NCBI GenBank assembly: GCA_902496295.1
Contig: CABVAF010000003.1
Location: 3,356-67,355, forward strand
From: an uncultured Clostridium sp.
GTDB lineage: Bacteria > Bacillota > Clostridia > TANB77 > CAG-508
DNA length: 64,000 nt
Direction of reading: 5' to 3'
The notes under the pieces are model-generated. The model ran no database searches. It saw nothing but the letters and a program-made list of their open reading frames with translations, and was not told the DNA's origin. Below, piece after piece: positions 21,151 to 48,106 of this stretch (positions are counted from its first letter, which is position 1; the number at the start of each line of letters is the position of its first letter). The translations under genes were made by a program, and so were the position numbers.

Positions 21151-22593
21151 ATGTCAAAAGAAGATTATGAAGTAGTAATAGGTTTAGAGGTTCATGCAGA
21201 GCTTTCTACAAAAACAAAAATATTCTGTTCATGCCCAACAACATTTGGAGCAGAGCCAAATACACATATATGCCCAATATGTACAGCAATGCCAGGAACT
21301 CTTCCAGTACTAAATGAGAAAGTTGTAGAATATGCAGTAAAAGCAGGATTAGCAACAAATTGTACAATTTCTAAAGATAGTAAAAATGATAGAAAAAATT
21401 ATTTTTATCCAGATTTACCAAAAGCATATCAAATTTCGCAATTTGATAAACCACTTTGTGAGCACGGCTATATAGAAATTGAAGATGATGAAGGAAATAA
21501 AAAGAAAATTAGACTTTTAAGAATTCATATAGAAGAAGATGCTGGAAAGTTAAATCATAATGAATTTGGAGTAGGAAGTTTAGTTGATTTAAACAGAGCA
21601 GGAGTACCATTAATAGAAATGGTTTCAGAGCCAGACATTAGGTCAAGTAGAGAAGCAGAACAATATTTAAGAAAAATAAAATCTATATTAGAATATATAG
21701 AAGTTTCAGACTGTAAGATGCAAGAAGGCTCATTAAGAGCAGACGTAAACGTTTCTGTTAGAAAAAAAGGCGAAGAAAAATTTGGTATACGTACAGAAAT
21801 GAAAAATATGAACTCTTTTAGAGCAATAGTAAGAGCAATAGAATATGAAAAAGACAGACAAATAGAAGTGCTAGAAGAAGGCGGAAAAGTAGAGCAAGAA
21901 ACTTTAAGATGGGATGATATAAATGGAAGAACATATTCAATGAGAGACAAAGAAGATGCTCAAGATTATAGATATTTCCCAGATCCAGATTTAGTAGCTA
22001 TTCGTTTATCAGATGAGTATGTAGAAGAAATAAGAAAATCATTACCAGAATTACCAGAAAGTAGAAGAGATAGATACATTAAAGAATATAATTTATCAGA
22101 AAAAGATGCAAAATTGTTAACATCTTCAAAATATTTATCAAATTTGTTTGAAGGAGCTTTAGCAATTTGTGGAAACGCAAAAGCAGTTGCAAACTGGATA
22201 TTATCAGACATTTCTAGAATATTAAATGAAAAAGAACTAGAACCAGAAAATATCCCATTCACAGCAGAAGAGCTAGCAAAAATGATACAATTAATAGATA
22301 AAGGAACAATAAGTTCAGCAATTGCTAAGAAAGTTTTAACTGAATTATTTGAAAATCCAAAAAATCCAGAAGAAATAATAAAGGAAAAAGGCTGGATTCA
22401 AATTTCAGATGAAGGAGCTATAAAAGAAGTTGTTATAAAAGTATTAGAAAACAACCCTCAATCTGTAGCAGACTTTAAAGGTGGAAAGGACAAAGCTTTA
22501 GGTTTCTTAGTTGGTCAGGCAATGAAAGAAACAAAAGGAAAAGCAAACCCACAAATGTTAAATAAAATGTTCTTGGAAGAATTGAATAAATAG
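21151..22593 (+). CDS. gatB: Asp/Glu-tRNA amidotransferase subunit B
   Basis: 480 aa. GatB N- and C-terminal domains in conserved order. Confidence 0.9.
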   Translation: MSKEDYEVVIGLEVHAELSTKTKIFCSCPTTFGAEPNTHICPICTAMPGTLPVLNEKVVEYAVKAGLATNCTISKDSKNDRKNYFYPDLPKAYQISQFDKPLCEHGYIEIEDDEGNKKKIRLLRIHIEEDAGKLNHNEFGVGSLVDLNRAGVPLIEMVSEPDIRSSREAEQYLRKIKSILEYIEVSDCKMQEGSLRADVNVSVRKKGEEKFGIRTEMKNMNSFRAIVRAIEYEKDRQIEVLEEGGKVEQETLRWDDINGRTYSMRDKEDAQDYRYFPDPDLVAIRLSDEYVEEIRKSLPELPESRRDRYIKEYNLSEKDAKLLTSSKYLSNLFEGALAICGNAKAVANWILSDISRILNEKELEPENIPFTAEELAKMIQLIDKGTISSAIAKKVLTELFENPKNPEEIIKEKGWIQISDEGAIKEVVIKVLENNPQSVADFKGGKDKALGFLVGQAMKETKGKANPQMLNKMFLEELNK

Positions 22594-22662
22594 TTAGAAA
22601 TTAGGGACAGGTCCATATTTCTGAATTTCAGAAATTGGAGACAGGTCTCTAATTTTTTATTA
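22591..22662 (+). repeat. repeat element copy A (two GAAATTAGGGACAGGTC-like units around the palindromic spacer TTCTGAATTTCAGAA; terminator-like)
   Basis: Starts at the gatB TAG. Second unit forms a hairpin followed by T6. Copy B is 97% identical. Confidence 0.7.
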
Positions 22663-22747
22663 TTTAATAAAAAACTATTGACAAAAAATAAAAAAAGAAT
22701 TATTATTGTATTAATGTATTAATACAATAATAAAACAAGGAGGAAAA

Positions 22748-23119
22748 ATGAAGTGGAATTTTGAAAGTGATAGACCTATTTATATACAACTTGTGGAAAA
22801 AATGAAAATAGCTATTATCTCAGGAAAGTACAAAGCAGGAGATAGACTTCCTTCTGTGAGAGATTTTGCAATAGAAATAAAGGCAAATCCTAATACGGTA
22901 CAAAGGGCATATTTGGAATTAGAAGAAGAAGGCTTAGTATTAACACAGCGTACTAATGGGAAGTTTGTTACAGAAGATAAAAATTTAATAAAAAAGATGA
23001 GAGAAGAAATAGCAAAACAAAGCTTAGAAAAATTTATAGACAGTATGATTGAACTTGGGTTTTCAAAAGAGGAAATTAGAGAATATATAATGTTAAATTA
23101 TAGAAAGGAAAAGGAGTAA
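22748..23119 (+). CDS. GntR-family (YtrA-like) transcriptional regulator
   Basis: 123 aa wHTH motif (RLPSVRDFAIEIKANPNTVQRAYLELEEEGL). Confidence 0.75.
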   Translation: MKWNFESDRPIYIQLVEKMKIAIISGKYKAGDRLPSVRDFAIEIKANPNTVQRAYLELEEEGLVLTQRTNGKFVTEDKNLIKKMREEIAKQSLEKFIDSMIELGFSKEEIREYIMLNYRKEKE

Positions 23120-23120
23120 T

Positions 23121-23819
23121 ATGGAATTGTTAAAGTGTGTAGACTTATGTAAAGATTATGGACAGATTAAAGCTCTAAACAAAATTAATATTTCGATTGA
23201 AAAGGGAAGAATAGTGGGACTTTTAGGAACAAATGGTAGCGGTAAGACTACATTAATAAAAATAATTAATGAGTTACTAGTTCCAAGTAGCGGAGAAATT
23301 TTAATAAATGGTGTAAAACCAGGTATTGAAAGTAAAAAAATAATCTCTTATCTACCAGAAAGAACTTATTTACCAGAAGATAAGAAAGTAATAGAAATTA
23401 TAAAATATTTTAAAGACTTTTATAAAGACTTTAATAAAGAAAGAGCTGTAAAACTATTAAATGAATTAGATATAAACAAAGAAAGCAAATTAAAACAATT
23501 ATCCAAAGGAACAAGAGAGAAAGTCCAATTAGTTTTAGTTATGAGTAGAGATGCAGATTTGTATGTACTAGATGAGCCAATTGGAGGAGTAGACCCAGTT
23601 GCAAGAGATAGAATATTAGACTTGATATTAAAGAATTTTAAAGAAGGTGCAAGTATACTTATTTCAACGCATTTAATTTCTGATATTGAGAGAATATTAG
23701 ATGATGTTATTTTTATAAATAGGGGAGAAATTGTATTAACATCAAGTGCTGATGAATTAAGAAAGAAGTATAACACTTCTATAGAAGGAGCTTTTAAGGA
23801 GGTATTCAAAGGATGCTAG
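23121..23819 (+). CDS. ABC transporter ATP-binding protein
   Basis: Walker A GTNGSGKTT, signature LSKGTREK and Walker B LYVLDEP. Confidence 0.85.
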   Translation: MELLKCVDLCKDYGQIKALNKINISIEKGRIVGLLGTNGSGKTTLIKIINELLVPSSGEILINGVKPGIESKKIISYLPERTYLPEDKKVIEIIKYFKDFYKDFNKERAVKLLNELDINKESKLKQLSKGTREKVQLVLVMSRDADLYVLDEPIGGVDPVARDRILDLILKNFKEGASILISTHLISDIERILDDVIFINRGEIVLTSSADELRKKYNTSIEGAFKEVFKGC

Positions 23820-24622
23820 GAAAAATGTTAAAATATGATATAAAAGATTATTCTAAAAGTATGTTACCTATATGTTTAATGCTACTTATAATGTCTGTTA
23901 TAACAAGAATTTTTTATACGATTTCAGAAAGTTTTGAAGGTTTAAAGGCTACATTTAGTATATTATTTGGAATATCAACATTTATTTTTTGCATTACAAT
24001 TATAATTTCTTTGGTTTATTGCTTTTTTATATCTGTAAAAAATTATTATAAAAAAGTTTTAAAAGATGAAGGGTATTTAACTCATACATTACCTGTTAGA
24101 AAAAGTACTATTATTTTATCTCAAATAATTAGTTCAATTATATGGCTATTTATTATATGTATAATAATATTAGCTACATTAGCAATAGCATATTATCAAA
24201 AAGGTATGATAAGTTCATTTATAAATATAATGAATTCAGAAATGAGTAGTGAACTGATAGTATCACCTATAGTTACATTAATAATTATTGCAGTAATGAT
24301 GATTTGTTCTTATATAGCTACAGTTTTAGCAATATATTGTTCAATGACAATAGGGCATAGTTTTAGTAATAATAAAATTGCTTATTCAATTGTAACAGGA
24401 GTAGTATTTTATGTAGTATATCAAGTGTTAGGCATTGTTGCAGTAGTGGCAGTTATTGCATGTAATTATGGCAGTCTAGAAACTATGATAAATGGTATGA
24501 CAATGACAGAAAACGTATTAATTCAGTTGATAGTATCAACATTTATTACAAATGTTATTATAGGAATTGCATCATATATTTTGACAAATTATAATTTAAA
24601 AAAGAGATTAAATTTAGAATAG
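23813..24622 (+). CDS. ABC-2-type permease
   Basis: 269 aa polytopic protein. Its start overlaps the ATPase stop, indicating translational coupling. Confidence 0.6.
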   Translation: MLGKMLKYDIKDYSKSMLPICLMLLIMSVITRIFYTISESFEGLKATFSILFGISTFIFCITIIISLVYCFFISVKNYYKKVLKDEGYLTHTLPVRKSTIILSQIISSIIWLFIICIIILATLAIAYYQKGMISSFINIMNSEMSSELIVSPIVTLIIIAVMMICSYIATVLAIYCSMTIGHSFSNNKIAYSIVTGVVFYVVYQVLGIVAVVAVIACNYGSLETMINGMTMTENVLIQLIVSTFITNVIIGIASYILTNYNLKKRLNLE

Positions 24623-24691
24623 TTAGAAATTAGGGACAGGTCCGTATTTCTGAATTTCAGAAATTGGGGACAGGTCTCTAATTTTTTATCT
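24620..24691 (+). repeat. repeat element copy B
   Basis: Begins at the permease TAG and differs from copy A at 2 positions. Confidence 0.7.
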
Positions 24692-24698
24692 AACAACT

Positions 24699-24950
24699 TT
24701 AAAGTTTCATCTCTTTTTTTAACTTATTAAAAGATAAACTACAAACTAAACTTATAACAATAAAATATAAACTACTAGTAAATATAGATATGCCAGTATA
24801 AAATAATGTAGGAACTGAATATATAGTAGAATATGTGAAAAGAATAATAGTAGATATAATTAGTAAAGTAAATGAAAATTTAATACAAGCTTTCATTATG
24901 CTAACAATGTTTTTATCAATATTTTTAAATTCATTAAAAATCTTTTTCAT
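24699..24950 (-). CDS. small hydrophobic membrane protein
   Basis: 83-aa ORF with two predicted TM segments. Confidence 0.3.
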   Translation of the reverse strand: MKKIFNEFKNIDKNIVSIMKACIKFSFTLLIISTIILFTYSTIYSVPTLFYTGISIFTSSLYFIVISLVCSLSFNKLKKEMKL

Positions 24951-45222: not shown

Positions 45223-46656
45223 ATGGACAAAGAATTTGTTAAAGAACTTACAAATATAGAAGAAGATTTTGCTAAGTGGTATACAGATATTGTTATAAAG
45301 GCAGAACTTGCAGATTACACAGATACTAAAGGCTGTATTGCAATAAAGCCATACGGATATGCTATATGGGAAAATATACAAAAATATACAGACGATTTAT
45401 TTAAAAAAGCAGGAGTAAAAAATGTGTACTTTCCACTTTTAATTCCAGAGAGTCTGTTACAAAAAGAAAAAGATCATGTGGAAGGATTTGCACCAGAAGT
45501 AGCAATGGTAACAGAAGCGGGAGGAGAACCACTAGAAGAAAAATTGGTTGTAAGACCTACATCTGAAACTATGTTTTCTACACTTTATTCTAAGTGGATT
45601 AGCTCATGGAGAGATTTACCAGTTGTATATAATCAATGGTGTAGTGTATTAAGATGGGAAAAAGAAACAAGACCATTTTTACGTTCTCGTGAATTTTTAT
45701 GGCAAGAAGGTCATACAATCCATGCAACTGAAGAAGAAGCAAGAGAACGTACAATACAAATGCTTAACATATATGCACAAGTAGTAGAAGACCTACTTGC
45801 AATACCAGTTTTAAAAGGAGAAAAAACTCCAAGTGAAAAATTTGCAGGAGCAGAAAATACATATACAATAGAAACCTTGATGCATGATGGCAGAGCACTT
45901 CAATCTGGTACTTCACACTATTTTGGACAGAACTTTACGAAGCCATTTAATATAAAGTTCCAAAATAAAGAAGGTAAAGAAGAATATGGTTATCAAACTT
46001 CATGGGGAATTAGCACAAGATTGCTTGGTGGAGTTATTATGGCACATGGAGATGATAGAGGTTTGAAATTACCACCCAAAGTTGCTCCAATCCAAATTGT
46101 AATAGTTCCAGTTGCTGCACATAAAGAAGGAGTTGTAGAAAAAGCAACAGAATTAAAAAATGTGTTAGAAGAAAAATTCCGTGTAGAATTAGACTTAAGA
46201 GATAATTATTCAACAGGATATAAATTTAATTATTGGGAATTAAGAGGAGTACCAGTAAGAATAGAAATTGGACCAAGAGATATAGAAAATGGTCAATGTG
46301 TCGTGGTTAGAAGAGACACATTAGAAAAGCAGTTTGTAAAATTAGATGAATTGCAAAACAAGATGGAAGAATTATTAGAAGAAATTCAAAAGCACATGTA
46401 TGACGAGTGTGTTGAAAGAGTAAAAAGTAAGACAAATGTTGCTACAAACATGGATGAATTTGAGAAAAATTTGAAAGAAAATCAAGGATATGTTAAAGCA
46501 ATGTGGTGTGGAGATGAAGCTTGTGAAGATAAAATAAAAGACCTTACAGGAGCTAAGTCTAGATGTATTCCATTTGAGCAAGAACATATATCAGATAAAT
46601 GTGTATGCTGTGGAAAACCAGCAACGAAGATGGTTTATTGGGGAAGACAATATTAA
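45223..46656 (+). CDS. proS: prolyl-tRNA synthetase (short, archaeal/eukaryote-like type)
   Basis: 477 aa class II aaRS with C-terminal zinc-binding CxxC...CxxC. Confidence 0.85.
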
Positions 46657-46687: not shown

Positions 46688-46752
46688 ATAGAAATTAGGG
46701 ACCTGTCCCTAATTTCTGTATTTCAGAAAAAATGACCTGTCCCTAATTTCCA
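46688..46752 (-). repeat. repeat element copy C (inverted orientation) between convergent proS and 46743..47285
   Basis: Its reverse complement has the same two-unit structure as copies A and B. It contains the TAG stop of the minus-strand gene. Confidence 0.65.
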
Positions 46753-47285
46753 AATTTTTTATTTAAGGTATTTAATACCTCTGGGTATATTTTATAAGCA
46801 TTTGTTTTCCAGTTATCTACTATTTTTTTTGCTTCATCACGTGAGCCACAAAAAACTTTAAGTTCAAATATACATTTACCGTTTTCGTTTATTTTACAAG
46901 TTACAGTATATTCTGTTTCACTTTTGGGAGTGAATTCTGCAATTACAGATTCTTGTTCTTTAGTTGCTGAAATTTCATTTTTTAAGTTTATATCAACCTT
47001 TAACTTTATTATACCAGGTAACATATCTATGGTTAAGTGTAATGCTTCTCTACCTGTTTCTGTTATTTCATAAACATCTTTAGTATCTTTTTTATAACCC
47101 TTTATATAATTTAATTGGGTTAAGTCTAATAAGAACTGTTGAAAATAAAAATAGTTCATATCTTGTGTTGATAGAATTATTCTGTATAAGTTTGCATTAT
47201 CAATTGGTGTGTATAGTTTGTCTAGTATGTACAATATTAGTATTTTGTTTTCTGCTAATGTTTCATTGTCTGATGAAAGTTTCAA
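46743..47285 (-). CDS. DUF4364-like putative wHTH regulator
   Basis: TTG start with GGAGTG RBS and extended -10 TGTTATAAT upstream. The ORF track extends it to 47411. Confidence 0.4.
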   Translation of the reverse strand: MKLSSDNETLAENKILILYILDKLYTPIDNANLYRIILSTQDMNYFYFQQFLLDLTQLNYIKGYKKDTKDVYEITETGREALHLTIDMLPGIIKLKVDINLKNEISATKEQESVIAEFTPKSETEYTVTCKINENGKCIFELKVFCGSRDEAKKIVDNWKTNAYKIYPEVLNTLNKKFGN

Positions 47286-47398
47286 TTTGCTCACTCCTAA
47301 ATATTTTTTTCCATTATAACACAAAATGTTTATAAATACTATTATTTTTTTATTAAAAATGTTATACTTTATAAAGAATGTTTTAATATGGGGGAAAA

Positions 47399-48106
47399 AT
47401 GAAAAAAACACTATATGATATTTTAGAAGTTAGTGAAAAGGCTTCTAAAGAGGTAATAGAAAAAGCATATAAAGTTTTAGCTAAAAAGTATCATCCTGAT
47501 TTACAAACGGAGGAGAATAAAACTGAAGCAGAAAGCAAAATGAAAGAAATAAATGAGGCATATAATATTTTAAGTAATGATGATGAGAGAAAAAAATATG
47601 ATGCTGAATTAGAAAATACTAGAGAAATAGAAAGGCAAGAAGAAATTGCTAGACAACAGAATGTATACACAAATGAAAATGCAGGAAACTATAATTTAAA
47701 TATGCAAAATAATAGAGCGCCACAAGGAAATGTTAACGATAATAATTTGCAAAGAGATTTGCAAGAGGTTTTAAGAAAACAGCAAGAAAGTTTAAGAATG
47801 CAACAAGCCGCATATGCTAAACAACAAGCCGAAATGGAAAAACAATATAATAATGCCTATTATAAGTATTTAAAAAGTTTGGGATATAAAATTAAATTTA
47901 AATGGACATGGAAACAGTATGTTACACTATTTATAGTAATTATGGTATTAATAGGTATTGGGCTTATTTTGTGGATTATTCCTCCAACTCATGATTGGAT
48001 GCTAGAATTATACAATAATAATATATTTATAAAAACGTTTGTAAATATATTTATAGGAATTTTTAACGGGATAGGAAAGATAATTTCAAGTATTTTTAGT
48101 GATTAG
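47399..48106 (+). CDS. J-domain (DnaJ-like) protein with C-terminal membrane anchor
   Basis: J-domain YDILEV...KKYHPD. Gln-rich linker and C-terminal TM helices. Confidence 0.65.

Follow-up and report, generated by a model that had tools for sequence, protein, structure and literature searches.

We analysed a stretch of 64,000 nucleotides (nt), hereafter the window, from an uncultured Clostridium sp. (assembly GCA_902496295.1, contig CABVAF010000003.1, positions 3,356 to 67,355), in which a palindromic repeat of about 70 nt occurs in three copies, A, B and C, at the ends of genes. Copies A and B lie on either side of a YtrA-like operon for a GntR regulator, an ABC transporter ATPase and a permease (the cassette), downstream of gatCAB, and copy C lies between proS and a gene of the DUF4364 family. 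The gene identities are backed by Pfam (GatC/GatA/GatB, GntR, ABC_tran, ProRS and DUF4364). The features of the two regions are as follows.

21151–22593, plus strand: gatB, final gene of gatCAB (open reading frame (ORF) end and Pfam match); copy A comes directly after its stop codon
22591–22660, plus strand: copy A, beginning at the gatB TAG (22591–22593); four alternating half-palindromic units
22597–22613, plus strand: copy A, unit 1
22618–22634: copy A, degenerate inverted unit and inner hairpin TTTCTGAATTTCAGAAA
22631–22647, plus strand: copy A, unit 2
22640–22655: copy A, inverted unit, with a T-run at 22653–22658
22748–24622, plus strand: YtrA-like operon (ORFs and Pfam matches)
22748–23119, plus strand: GntR regulator (Pfam GntR)
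23121–23819, plus strand: ABC ATPase (Pfam ABC_tran)
23813–24622, plus strand: permease of 269 amino acids (aa), closing the YtrA-like operon
24620–24689, plus strand: copy B, beginning at the permease TAG (24620–24622); architecture as in copy A
24626–24642: copy B, unit 1, with the inner hairpin at 24647–24663
24660–24676: copy B, unit 2, with the inverted unit at 24669–24684 and a T-run at 24682–24687
24699–24950, minus strand: ORF of 83 aa, convergent; a conserved neighbour that accompanies the cassette in all related species examined
45223–46656, plus strand: proS (Pfam ProRS), convergent on copy C
46688–46761, minus strand: copy C, nearly palindromic, with T-runs flanking both sides
46734–46750 and 46700–46716, minus strand: copy C, units, with the inverted unit on the plus strand at 46691–46707
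46743–47411, minus strand: DUF4364 gene, with a weak winged-helix match; copy C provides its stop codon

Architecture of the repeat copies

A repeat search of the window paired 22589–22660 with 24618–24689 as direct repeats of 72 nt, identical at 70 of 72 positions (97%) and spaced by 2029 nt. From both of these copies, inverted matches of 68–70 nt, 84% complementary, led to 46692–46761, that is, to copy C, which harbours the TAG (46743–46745) of the minus-strand DUF4364 ORF. In every window copy two direct units stand 34 nt apart with the palindrome TTTCTGAATTTCAGAAA in between, and a 3′ arm is followed by T6. Each copy consists of four half-palindromic units of alternating orientation, in the order TTAGAAATTAGGGAC, AG, GTCCATATTTCTGAA, TTT, CAGAAATTGGAGAC, AG, GTCTCTAATTT and then TTTAT. 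The initial annotation, made from the sequence of the window, had described a near-identical 70-nt repeat on both sides of the GntR-ABC-permease genes, an inverted third copy between proS and a winged helix-turn-helix gene that includes the stop codon of the latter, and two direct units around a palindrome ending in a hairpin and a T-run. These descriptions held, with a fold of about −32 kcal/mol for each copy.

The 17-mer GAAATTAGGGACAGGTC, allowing up to three mismatches, matched seven times inside copies A, B and C, against a chance expectation of 0.13; the total of eight matches was reached in none of 100 shuffles. A looser scan found no fourth copy anywhere in the 64 kb. Rfam gave no match at the gathering threshold for the window and five related loci. 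ARAGORN found no tRNA or tmRNA in the window, which thus offers no attachment site of the tRNA type. The window has one further pair of inverted repeats, I1 and I2 (5194–5732 and 13214–13740, 74% complementary), which proved unrelated to copies A to C, being ordinary paralogy between AMP-binding (acyl-CoA synthetase-like) genes at 3998–5740 (plus strand) and 13209–14930 (minus strand).

Dispersal of the family in related genomes

We searched GTDB representative genomes for the 17-mer and obtained 59 stretches. Of these, 37, with 49 exact matches, came from a single metagenome-assembled genome (MAG), CALXVM01 ('uncultured Clostridia bacterium'); the remainder came from four or five further Clostridia MAGs, with isolated matches in unrelated phyla. 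The CALXVM01 elements form 48 clusters over 1.15 Mb of contigs, about one per 24 kb, close to the three per 64 kb of the window. Intergenic positions account for 42 of the clusters (29 between co-directional genes, 10 between convergent and 3 between divergent ones), one cluster is possibly intragenic and five are unclassified; by a count of orientation made by hand, about 35 of the 48 copies face the 3′ end of a co-oriented gene. The usual CALXVM01 form has two cores 34 nt apart that flank a central hairpin (consensus TTGGAAATTAGGGACAGGTCCCAACTTCCCGATTTGGGAAATTGGGGACAGGTCA), and variants include perfect 60-nt palindromes (L019, L042) and clusters of three. The family shares a conserved core, GGGACAGG(T/C)C, with an adjoining hairpin that varies in sequence between species yet stays paired. 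The inner hairpin of the window subtype (TTTCTGAA...CAGAAA) was recovered by a metagenome scan at eight loci; for seven of these the genomic site is a different one. No target-site duplication was found at the flanks of 42 copies.

The elements often reach into the ends of genes. In 20 of the 48 CALXVM01 copies the neighbouring ORF stops at a TAG inside unit 1 (GGAAATTAGGG; ...GGA AAT TAG), which gives its protein a ...G-N tail, and in seven further copies a TAG lies 1–4 nt upstream of the element. Examples of such stop codons are at CALXVM01 loci L005, L016, L021, L030, L033 and L036, and at 46743–46745 of the window. The C-terminus of GatB reads ...LNK in the window and in L064, ...LNGN in L068 and ...LGN in CALXVM01, that is, three junctions at one site. 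Orthologous gene ends hold the inner hairpin of their own species, TTTCTGAATTTCAGAAA versus TTTCCCAAATCGGGAAA, at the following pairs of sites.

L030 3839–3889 and L068 3153–3210, against window 22591–22660
L095 8578, against L005 232–282

Such species-own hairpins at orthologous sites suggest concerted evolution, in-place replacement or repeated insertion.

Two other recurrent sequences were noted near the doublets. The motif AAATTGGGACCAGATCT(A/G)AATTT, which may be a second or degenerate unit type, lies just 3′ of several of them (L023, L036, L051, L052, L054, L006) and also after the permease in L068 (5228–5320). The other is a structured element of about 115 nt, also present in multiple copies, with the form AAAAAGAGTAGTATTTT...GTGAAACAAGGTCTTAAAATTTGTGT...ACACAAATTTTAAG...AAAATACTACTCTTTTT, a fold of −42.6 kcal/mol (z −7.6) and no Rfam match. 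At three loci it is bracketed by inverted doublets, as is the transposase gene described below. The window lacks it; in L030 and L068–L070 it is located downstream of either gatB or the cassette. Its sites are listed here.

L014 3850–3975
L018 7510–7620
L059 7537–7649
L030 3945–4075
L068 5329–5458
L025, L032, L038, L044 and L100

A Y1 transposase gene between inverted doublets

In locus L027 (MAG CAKNQJ01) inverted doublets bracket an ORF of 266 aa that matches Pfam Y1_Tnp (E 6e-11), contains the motifs HIH and YIHRNP, and has as its best NCBIfam match the tyrosine transposase (RAYT) that is associated with repetitive extragenic palindromes (REPs). We found about 500 homologues of this protein, many of them on contigs of about 1 kb. 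All the longer contigs examined (L072–L079 and L027), which come from several species, have the gene order RNase J-like, GH15, Y1, radA, disA; the ends of the short contigs L080–L082 fall within the genes on either side of Y1. Inverted doublets flank the Y1 gene in every case (L027, L072–L079 and L080–L082). Judged from its constant neighbourhood in the longer contigs, the Y1 gene appears to be single-copy and vertically inherited. Across loci the proteins are 260–272 aa long and carry HIH or HVH and YIHRNP or YIHYNP motifs. The IS200 model gave either no match to these homologues or about 20–23 bits, far below their scores with the RAYT model, and precomputed PF13384 matches are present for some of them.

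The core GGGACAGG(T/C)C is kept at the Y1 loci as well. Species-specific sequence is found in the 5′ portion of the unit and in the central hairpin (GAAATT..., CGTTTT..., GTCGTTAT...). In an alignment of 16 doublets of five species types, five of five pairs of the central hairpin had changed on both sides between species. Pairing was kept in 86% of the alignment cells; shuffles gave 59%, and slid controls did not exceed 72.5%. The lineages are few, and this covariation is supportive rather than decisive.

The doublet of the window type itself was found beside such a gene in L094, where disA, radA, the doublet and a Y1 homologue of 272 aa follow one another; one flank of the gene is visible before the contig ends. 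This protein scores 81.9 bits against NCBIfam REP_Tyr_transpos (cut-off 80), and among PDB structures E. coli TnpAREP (4ER8) matches it best. The metagenome of L094 also contains L099, a copy of the window cassette with 96% identity.

A palindrome of another kind, AAAACTATAGCATATTT...AAATATGCTATAGTTTT with TGTAAATTTTTAGT ahead of it, is found in the interval between the upstream REP doublet and the start of the transposase (L027, about 5215–5255; upstream of Y1 in L072–L082). It is conserved across species whose REP arms have diverged, and may be an autoregulatory site or a terminator. A weak tblastn match to the transposase in L043 was discarded as spurious, as it falls inside a housekeeping ORF of 288 aa, which we take to be dapA-like.

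Folding and predicted termination

RNA from all three copies folds far better than shuffled sequence (z −6 to −8). Copy A reaches −32.1 kcal/mol on the plus strand (z −8.4) and −19.3 kcal/mol on the minus strand, the sense strand folding better because of G-U pairs. The values are −31.8 kcal/mol for copy B (z −7.1) and −32.1 (minus strand) and −28.9 kcal/mol (plus strand) for copy C. In the lowest-energy fold unit 1 pairs with unit 4 and the inner hairpin is nested inside, several alternative pairings being possible; the last two units alone, the minimal 3′ hairpin, give about −10 kcal/mol (−10.3 for copy A). A stem-loop of −29 to −32 kcal/mol followed by T5–T6 is thus present at A, B and C, and at copy C in both directions.

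Downstream of copy A the spacer contains two further features.

22678–22706, plus strand: cassette promoter-like site (TTGACA, 17 nt, TATTAT)
about 22700–22733, plus strand: palindrome TTATTATTGTATTAAT-G-TATTAATACAATAATAA, overlapping the −10 region of the cassette promoter and unrelated to the repeat

The core of this palindrome, TTGTATTAATGTATTAATACAA, is conserved in L064 and L068, and the palindrome is the likely operator of the YtrA-like GntR regulator. Neither by reading the sequence nor by a terminator scan did we find another terminator-like structure between gatB and the cassette promoter, or after the permease. At the orthologous positions L064 has ordinary terminators, and L068 has a conventional terminator just past the REP. 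Given the strong hairpin with its T-run, the lack of another terminator and the conventional terminators of relatives at these positions, the window copies are probably REPs that were taken over as terminators.

History of the cassette

Homologues of the permease, with 65–69% identity, pointed to contigs from three further related species, two of which show the same gene order as the window: gatCAB, GntR-ABC-permease, the ORF of 83 aa on the other strand, and rpsT. The contig of the third species (L071) ends just past the permease, and upstream of the cassette it has a prophage instead of gatB. The ends of the cassette differ among these loci. In L064–L067 the repeats are found at neither end and ordinary terminators stand in their place; in L068–L070 the gatB end has a repeat and, past it, a distinct conventional terminator, and the permease is followed by a different element; in L071 a degenerate unit follows the permease, and phage genes with an integrase lie directly upstream of GntR. 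The L071 prophage region (122–5835) encodes NrdD, a dUTPase, an excisionase-like helix-turn-helix (HTH) protein and a tyrosine integrase where gatB lies elsewhere, and the gatB/GntR spacer may be an integration site.

CALXVM01 (L030) has gatCAB, one element and the ORF of 83 aa, and lacks the cassette. Its closest relative is L068 (GatA 97.3% and the 83-aa ORF 92.8% identical, versus 93–95% and 66–75% for the others), and because L068 bears the cassette, the absence in CALXVM01 is read as a loss. The end-points of this deletion are not repeat copies. Thus, the cassette is long established at the gatCAB locus, with one probable loss, in CALXVM01. Since it occupies the same locus in related species where the repeats are absent or different, these comparisons indicate that the cassette was not brought in by the repeats. 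We did not see the cassette bounded by repeats at any other genomic site; it always comes after gatCAB (in L071, after the prophage) and before the ORF of 83 aa and rpsT.

Copies A and B are far more alike than the family at large: in a 72-nt frame they are 96–97% identical, against 65–81% between either of them and other copies of the window type, and their match extends over the 9 nt before unit 1 and over the entire 3′ arm. In strains of the window's species the two copies vary somewhat independently, with at most six differences and one fixed difference, at position 25. The permease of relatives stops at TAA, followed by another element or none. Most simply, B would have arisen within the lineage of the window by copying or conversion from A.

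One contig bears on whether A and B can recombine. L003, of 5.7 kb, encodes the same GatB protein and continues from gatB into one hybrid copy, A-like on its left, and then 80 nt of the copy-B flank, where it runs into a Nextera adapter. This adapter read-through (CTGTCTCTTATACACATCTCCGAGCCCACGAGAC..., 5585–5660) means that untrimmed reads entered a public assembly. L003 stems from at least one real read, which could be a PCR chimera; it may also represent a real, rare deletion allele, although we lean somewhat against this. Among the contigs listed for the window's species, 21 with the exact 83-aa protein and 16 with the exact permease, all contigs other than L003 carry the cassette; the sample of L003 is not among the exact-permease contigs, which gives no weight either way. 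In one strain of this species (L084, 1864–3240) a DDE_Tnp_1 (IS4-like) transposase with small ORFs has inserted between hpf and rpsT.

Discussion

The above results make it likely, in our judgement, that A, B and C are lineage-specific REP-like repeats of a TIRYT-type REP/RAYT system with a domesticated tyrosine transposase, which act here as terminators, and that the operon between A and B was not brought in by them. The system would belong to TIRYT, that is, RAYT Group 1 or TnpAREP subclass 2.1, with uncultured AT-rich gut Clostridia as hosts; this placement comes from architecture, not phylogeny. In the mechanism we propose, the Y1 enzyme would recognise the hairpin and the core on single-stranded DNA and would spread or renew copies without target duplication, like RAYTs and IS200/IS605 transposases. 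In the window genome A, B and C would have gained the fourth inverted unit and the T-run, which would place a strong stem-loop followed by U's in the transcript. Copy A would then end gatCAB transcripts and insulate the YtrA-like operon from gatCAB, copy B would end the transcripts of that operon, and copy C would terminate both proS and the DUF4364 gene as a bidirectional terminator. The near-identity of A and B would reflect a local copy or gene conversion within the species, not the arrival of the operon; as direct repeats of 70 nt, they could permit its occasional deletion.

TIRYT genes were described as RAYT-like, with inverted repeats containing GGGGWSAS on either side, and their repeats as moderately abundant families of dimers or clusters (Di Nocera et al. 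2013, PMC3733652). Quentin et al. (2018, PMC6006769) treat TIRYT as equivalent to subclass 2.1 and to Bertels' Group 1; they describe the subclass 2.1 proteins as long, with an HTH_23, HTH_28 or DnaA_C-like (Bac_DnaA_C) C-terminal tail, and report no REP-like structures near the genes. Bertels et al. (2017, PMC5581495) place Group 1 in Clostridia, with flanking 16-mers that average only 12 copies genome-wide. The system described here resembles TIRYT and its TIRtrons in having an apparently single-copy RAYT-like Y1 gene for about 260–270 aa, with weak HTH matches at the C-terminus, and in having flanking inverted repeats with GGGGWSAS, a motif fitted by GGGGACAG in most units (AGGGACAG occurs in others), the same repeats forming a moderately abundant family of dimers and clusters. 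It differs in that the core adjoins a clear covarying hairpin, in the 49 exact 17-mers of one MAG, about four times the average of 12 for flanking 16-mers, and in its uncultured gut Clostridia hosts.

With the classical REP, BIME and REPIN-RAYT systems of Enterobacteria and Pseudomonas the family shares short extragenic palindromic units in alternating orientation, mostly after genes, and an apparently vertically inherited, single-copy RAYT between repeats, with no target duplication; termination and mRNA stabilisation are among the roles proposed for the classical repeats. The clustering of half-palindromic units in alternating orientation is likewise a trait of BIMEs and REPINs. Unlike the classical repeats, however, those described here have no GTAG tag, consist of two direct cores around a central hairpin instead of two inverted REPs, and remain far below the hundreds of copies of Pseudomonas or E. 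coli. The IS200/IS605 elements and their miniature derivatives (PATEs) also combine a Y1 HUH enzyme with hairpin ends, a short recognition motif on one strand and no target duplication, but here the transposase gene appears to be present once, at a constant place in the chromosome, instead of on multiple mobile copies, and its homologues score 58–82 bits against the RAYT model versus 20–23 bits against the IS200 model.

Several observations weigh against the TIRYT-type assignment. The aligned copies conserve neither a GTAG nor a CGTC tetranucleotide, the invariant block being GGGACAGG(T/C)C. A tblastn search with the L027 transposase found no RAYT gene in the window, and the placement of L094 in the window's species relies on the shared repeat subtype and the contig with the 96%-identical cassette. 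Five Y1 homologues other than that of L094 score 58–69 bits, under the NCBIfam RAYT cut-off of 80, and their C-terminal matches to HTH_23, HTH_73 and HTH_28 (residues 234–263) are weak (E 1e-3 to 9e-3) and below the Pfam cut-offs. Nor do we know of any demonstration that Group 1/TIRYT enzymes act on their own repeats. As to termination at A, B and C, it is predicted, from AT-rich stems, and a simple terminator scan (at least three G-C pairs, loop of 3–8 nt) did not flag the copies, owing to these AT-rich stems and to the stem and loop criteria of the scan. A T-run follows only about one-fifth of the CALXVM01 copies, counted by eye; termination would therefore be a local co-option, not a general role of the family.

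A stronger version would have an active Group 1 (TIRYT-type) RAYT insert or rewrite repeats at the last codons of genes, with Y1, and not only RecA, excising the DNA between direct doublets, for example the operon, to leave a hybrid like that of L003. The first part is suggested by the roughly 40% of copies that supply the TAG of their neighbour, by the species-own hairpins at orthologous sites and by the three gatB junctions. As a whole we regard this version as unlikely.

The initial annotation had proposed that the bracketing might mean that the cassette was inserted or can recombine out. In the fuller form considered here, A and B would be the ends or the footprint of a mobile unit, the GntR-ABC operon having been inserted at gatB by or with the repeat and being still excisable. 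We noted that A and B are indeed direct and well above the family background in identity, that L003 joins gatB, one hybrid copy and the copy-B flank, and that in CALXVM01 gatB is followed by one element and then the 83-aa ORF, without the cassette. However, the comparison downstream of gatB, which found this cassette-free locus, also found the cassette at the same locus in related species with permeases only 65–69% identical, L064–L067 being without repeats and L068–L070 having a different element. CALXVM01, moreover, is the sister of cassette-bearing L068 (GatA 97% versus 93–95%), its deletion does not end in repeat copies, and the cassette was never seen elsewhere in a repeat-bearing genome, the nearest exception being L071 with its prophage integrase immediately upstream. 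The insertion half of the proposal is thus largely refuted already. Its other half, recombination out of the locus, draws weak support from the single contig L003, which ends in adapter and may be a chimeric read, against the other listed contigs of the species, all of which carry the cassette. Taken together, a mobile cassette appears quite improbable.

The same annotation had seen in the copies a dispersed element of the REP or terminator type, and in this respect it was borne out by the dozens of copies per related genome and by their link to a REP-associated Y1 gene, termination being predicted. The genome search for the 17-mer showed neither hundreds of copies at every gene end nor absence elsewhere. 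This census contradicts the view that the copies are ordinary intrinsic terminators, alike through local duplication and with no link to a mobile element. The resemblance is real: a stable stem-loop and U-run come right after the stop codon, A and B are merely 2 kb apart, and copy C looks like a bidirectional terminator between convergent genes. But the stems are long, AT-rich and made of a repeated mobile module. The units of A, B and C recur at dozens of unrelated loci across several species, many copies, including most CALXVM01 members, have no U-run, some abut ribosome-binding sites on the opposite strand, and a Y1 transposase gene lies between inverted copies in every species examined. 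We thus hold this view to be very unlikely.

It is still less probable that the repeats are miniature inverted-repeat transposable elements derived from an insertion sequence of the DDE type, bearing terminal inverted repeats and a target-site duplication; the family is dispersed and non-coding and includes perfect 60-nt palindromes (L019, L042), but none of the 42 copies has flanking duplications, the common form has direct cores in place of terminal inverted repeats, and the sole transposase consistently beside the repeats is of the Y1 type, encoded at an unchanging chromosomal position. Finally, operator sites for the GntR regulator of the cassette or another DNA-binding protein, which two direct units with a fixed 34-nt spacing around an operon might suggest, are barely credible, as the operon's promoter carries a conserved palindrome of its own, TTGTATTAATGTATTAATACAA, kept in relatives without the repeat, and the repeats are found genome-wide behind unrelated genes, at their 3′ ends.

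Among the readings considered, then, we return to lineage-specific REP-like repeats of a TIRYT-type system. To our knowledge, work on REP/RAYT systems has been confined almost entirely to Proteobacteria, and we know of no hairpin-type target defined so far for Group 1 (subclass 2.1, TIRYT), the largest of the RAYT groups. What appears to be new here is a family of the TIRYT/Group 1 kind with an unusually clear hairpin and a comparatively high copy number. For annotation, the repeat family would account for assembly breaks and for the recurrent ...GN-stop protein tail, and it calls for caution, in that repeat-bracketed operons in these MAGs should not be taken as mobile cassettes. The gut Clostridia clade would offer a clean Group 1 example, with one syntenic Y1 gene, a conserved 10-nt core, a covarying hairpin and dozens of dispersed copies, and the doublet with its core may serve as a concrete substrate for the biochemistry of Group 1.

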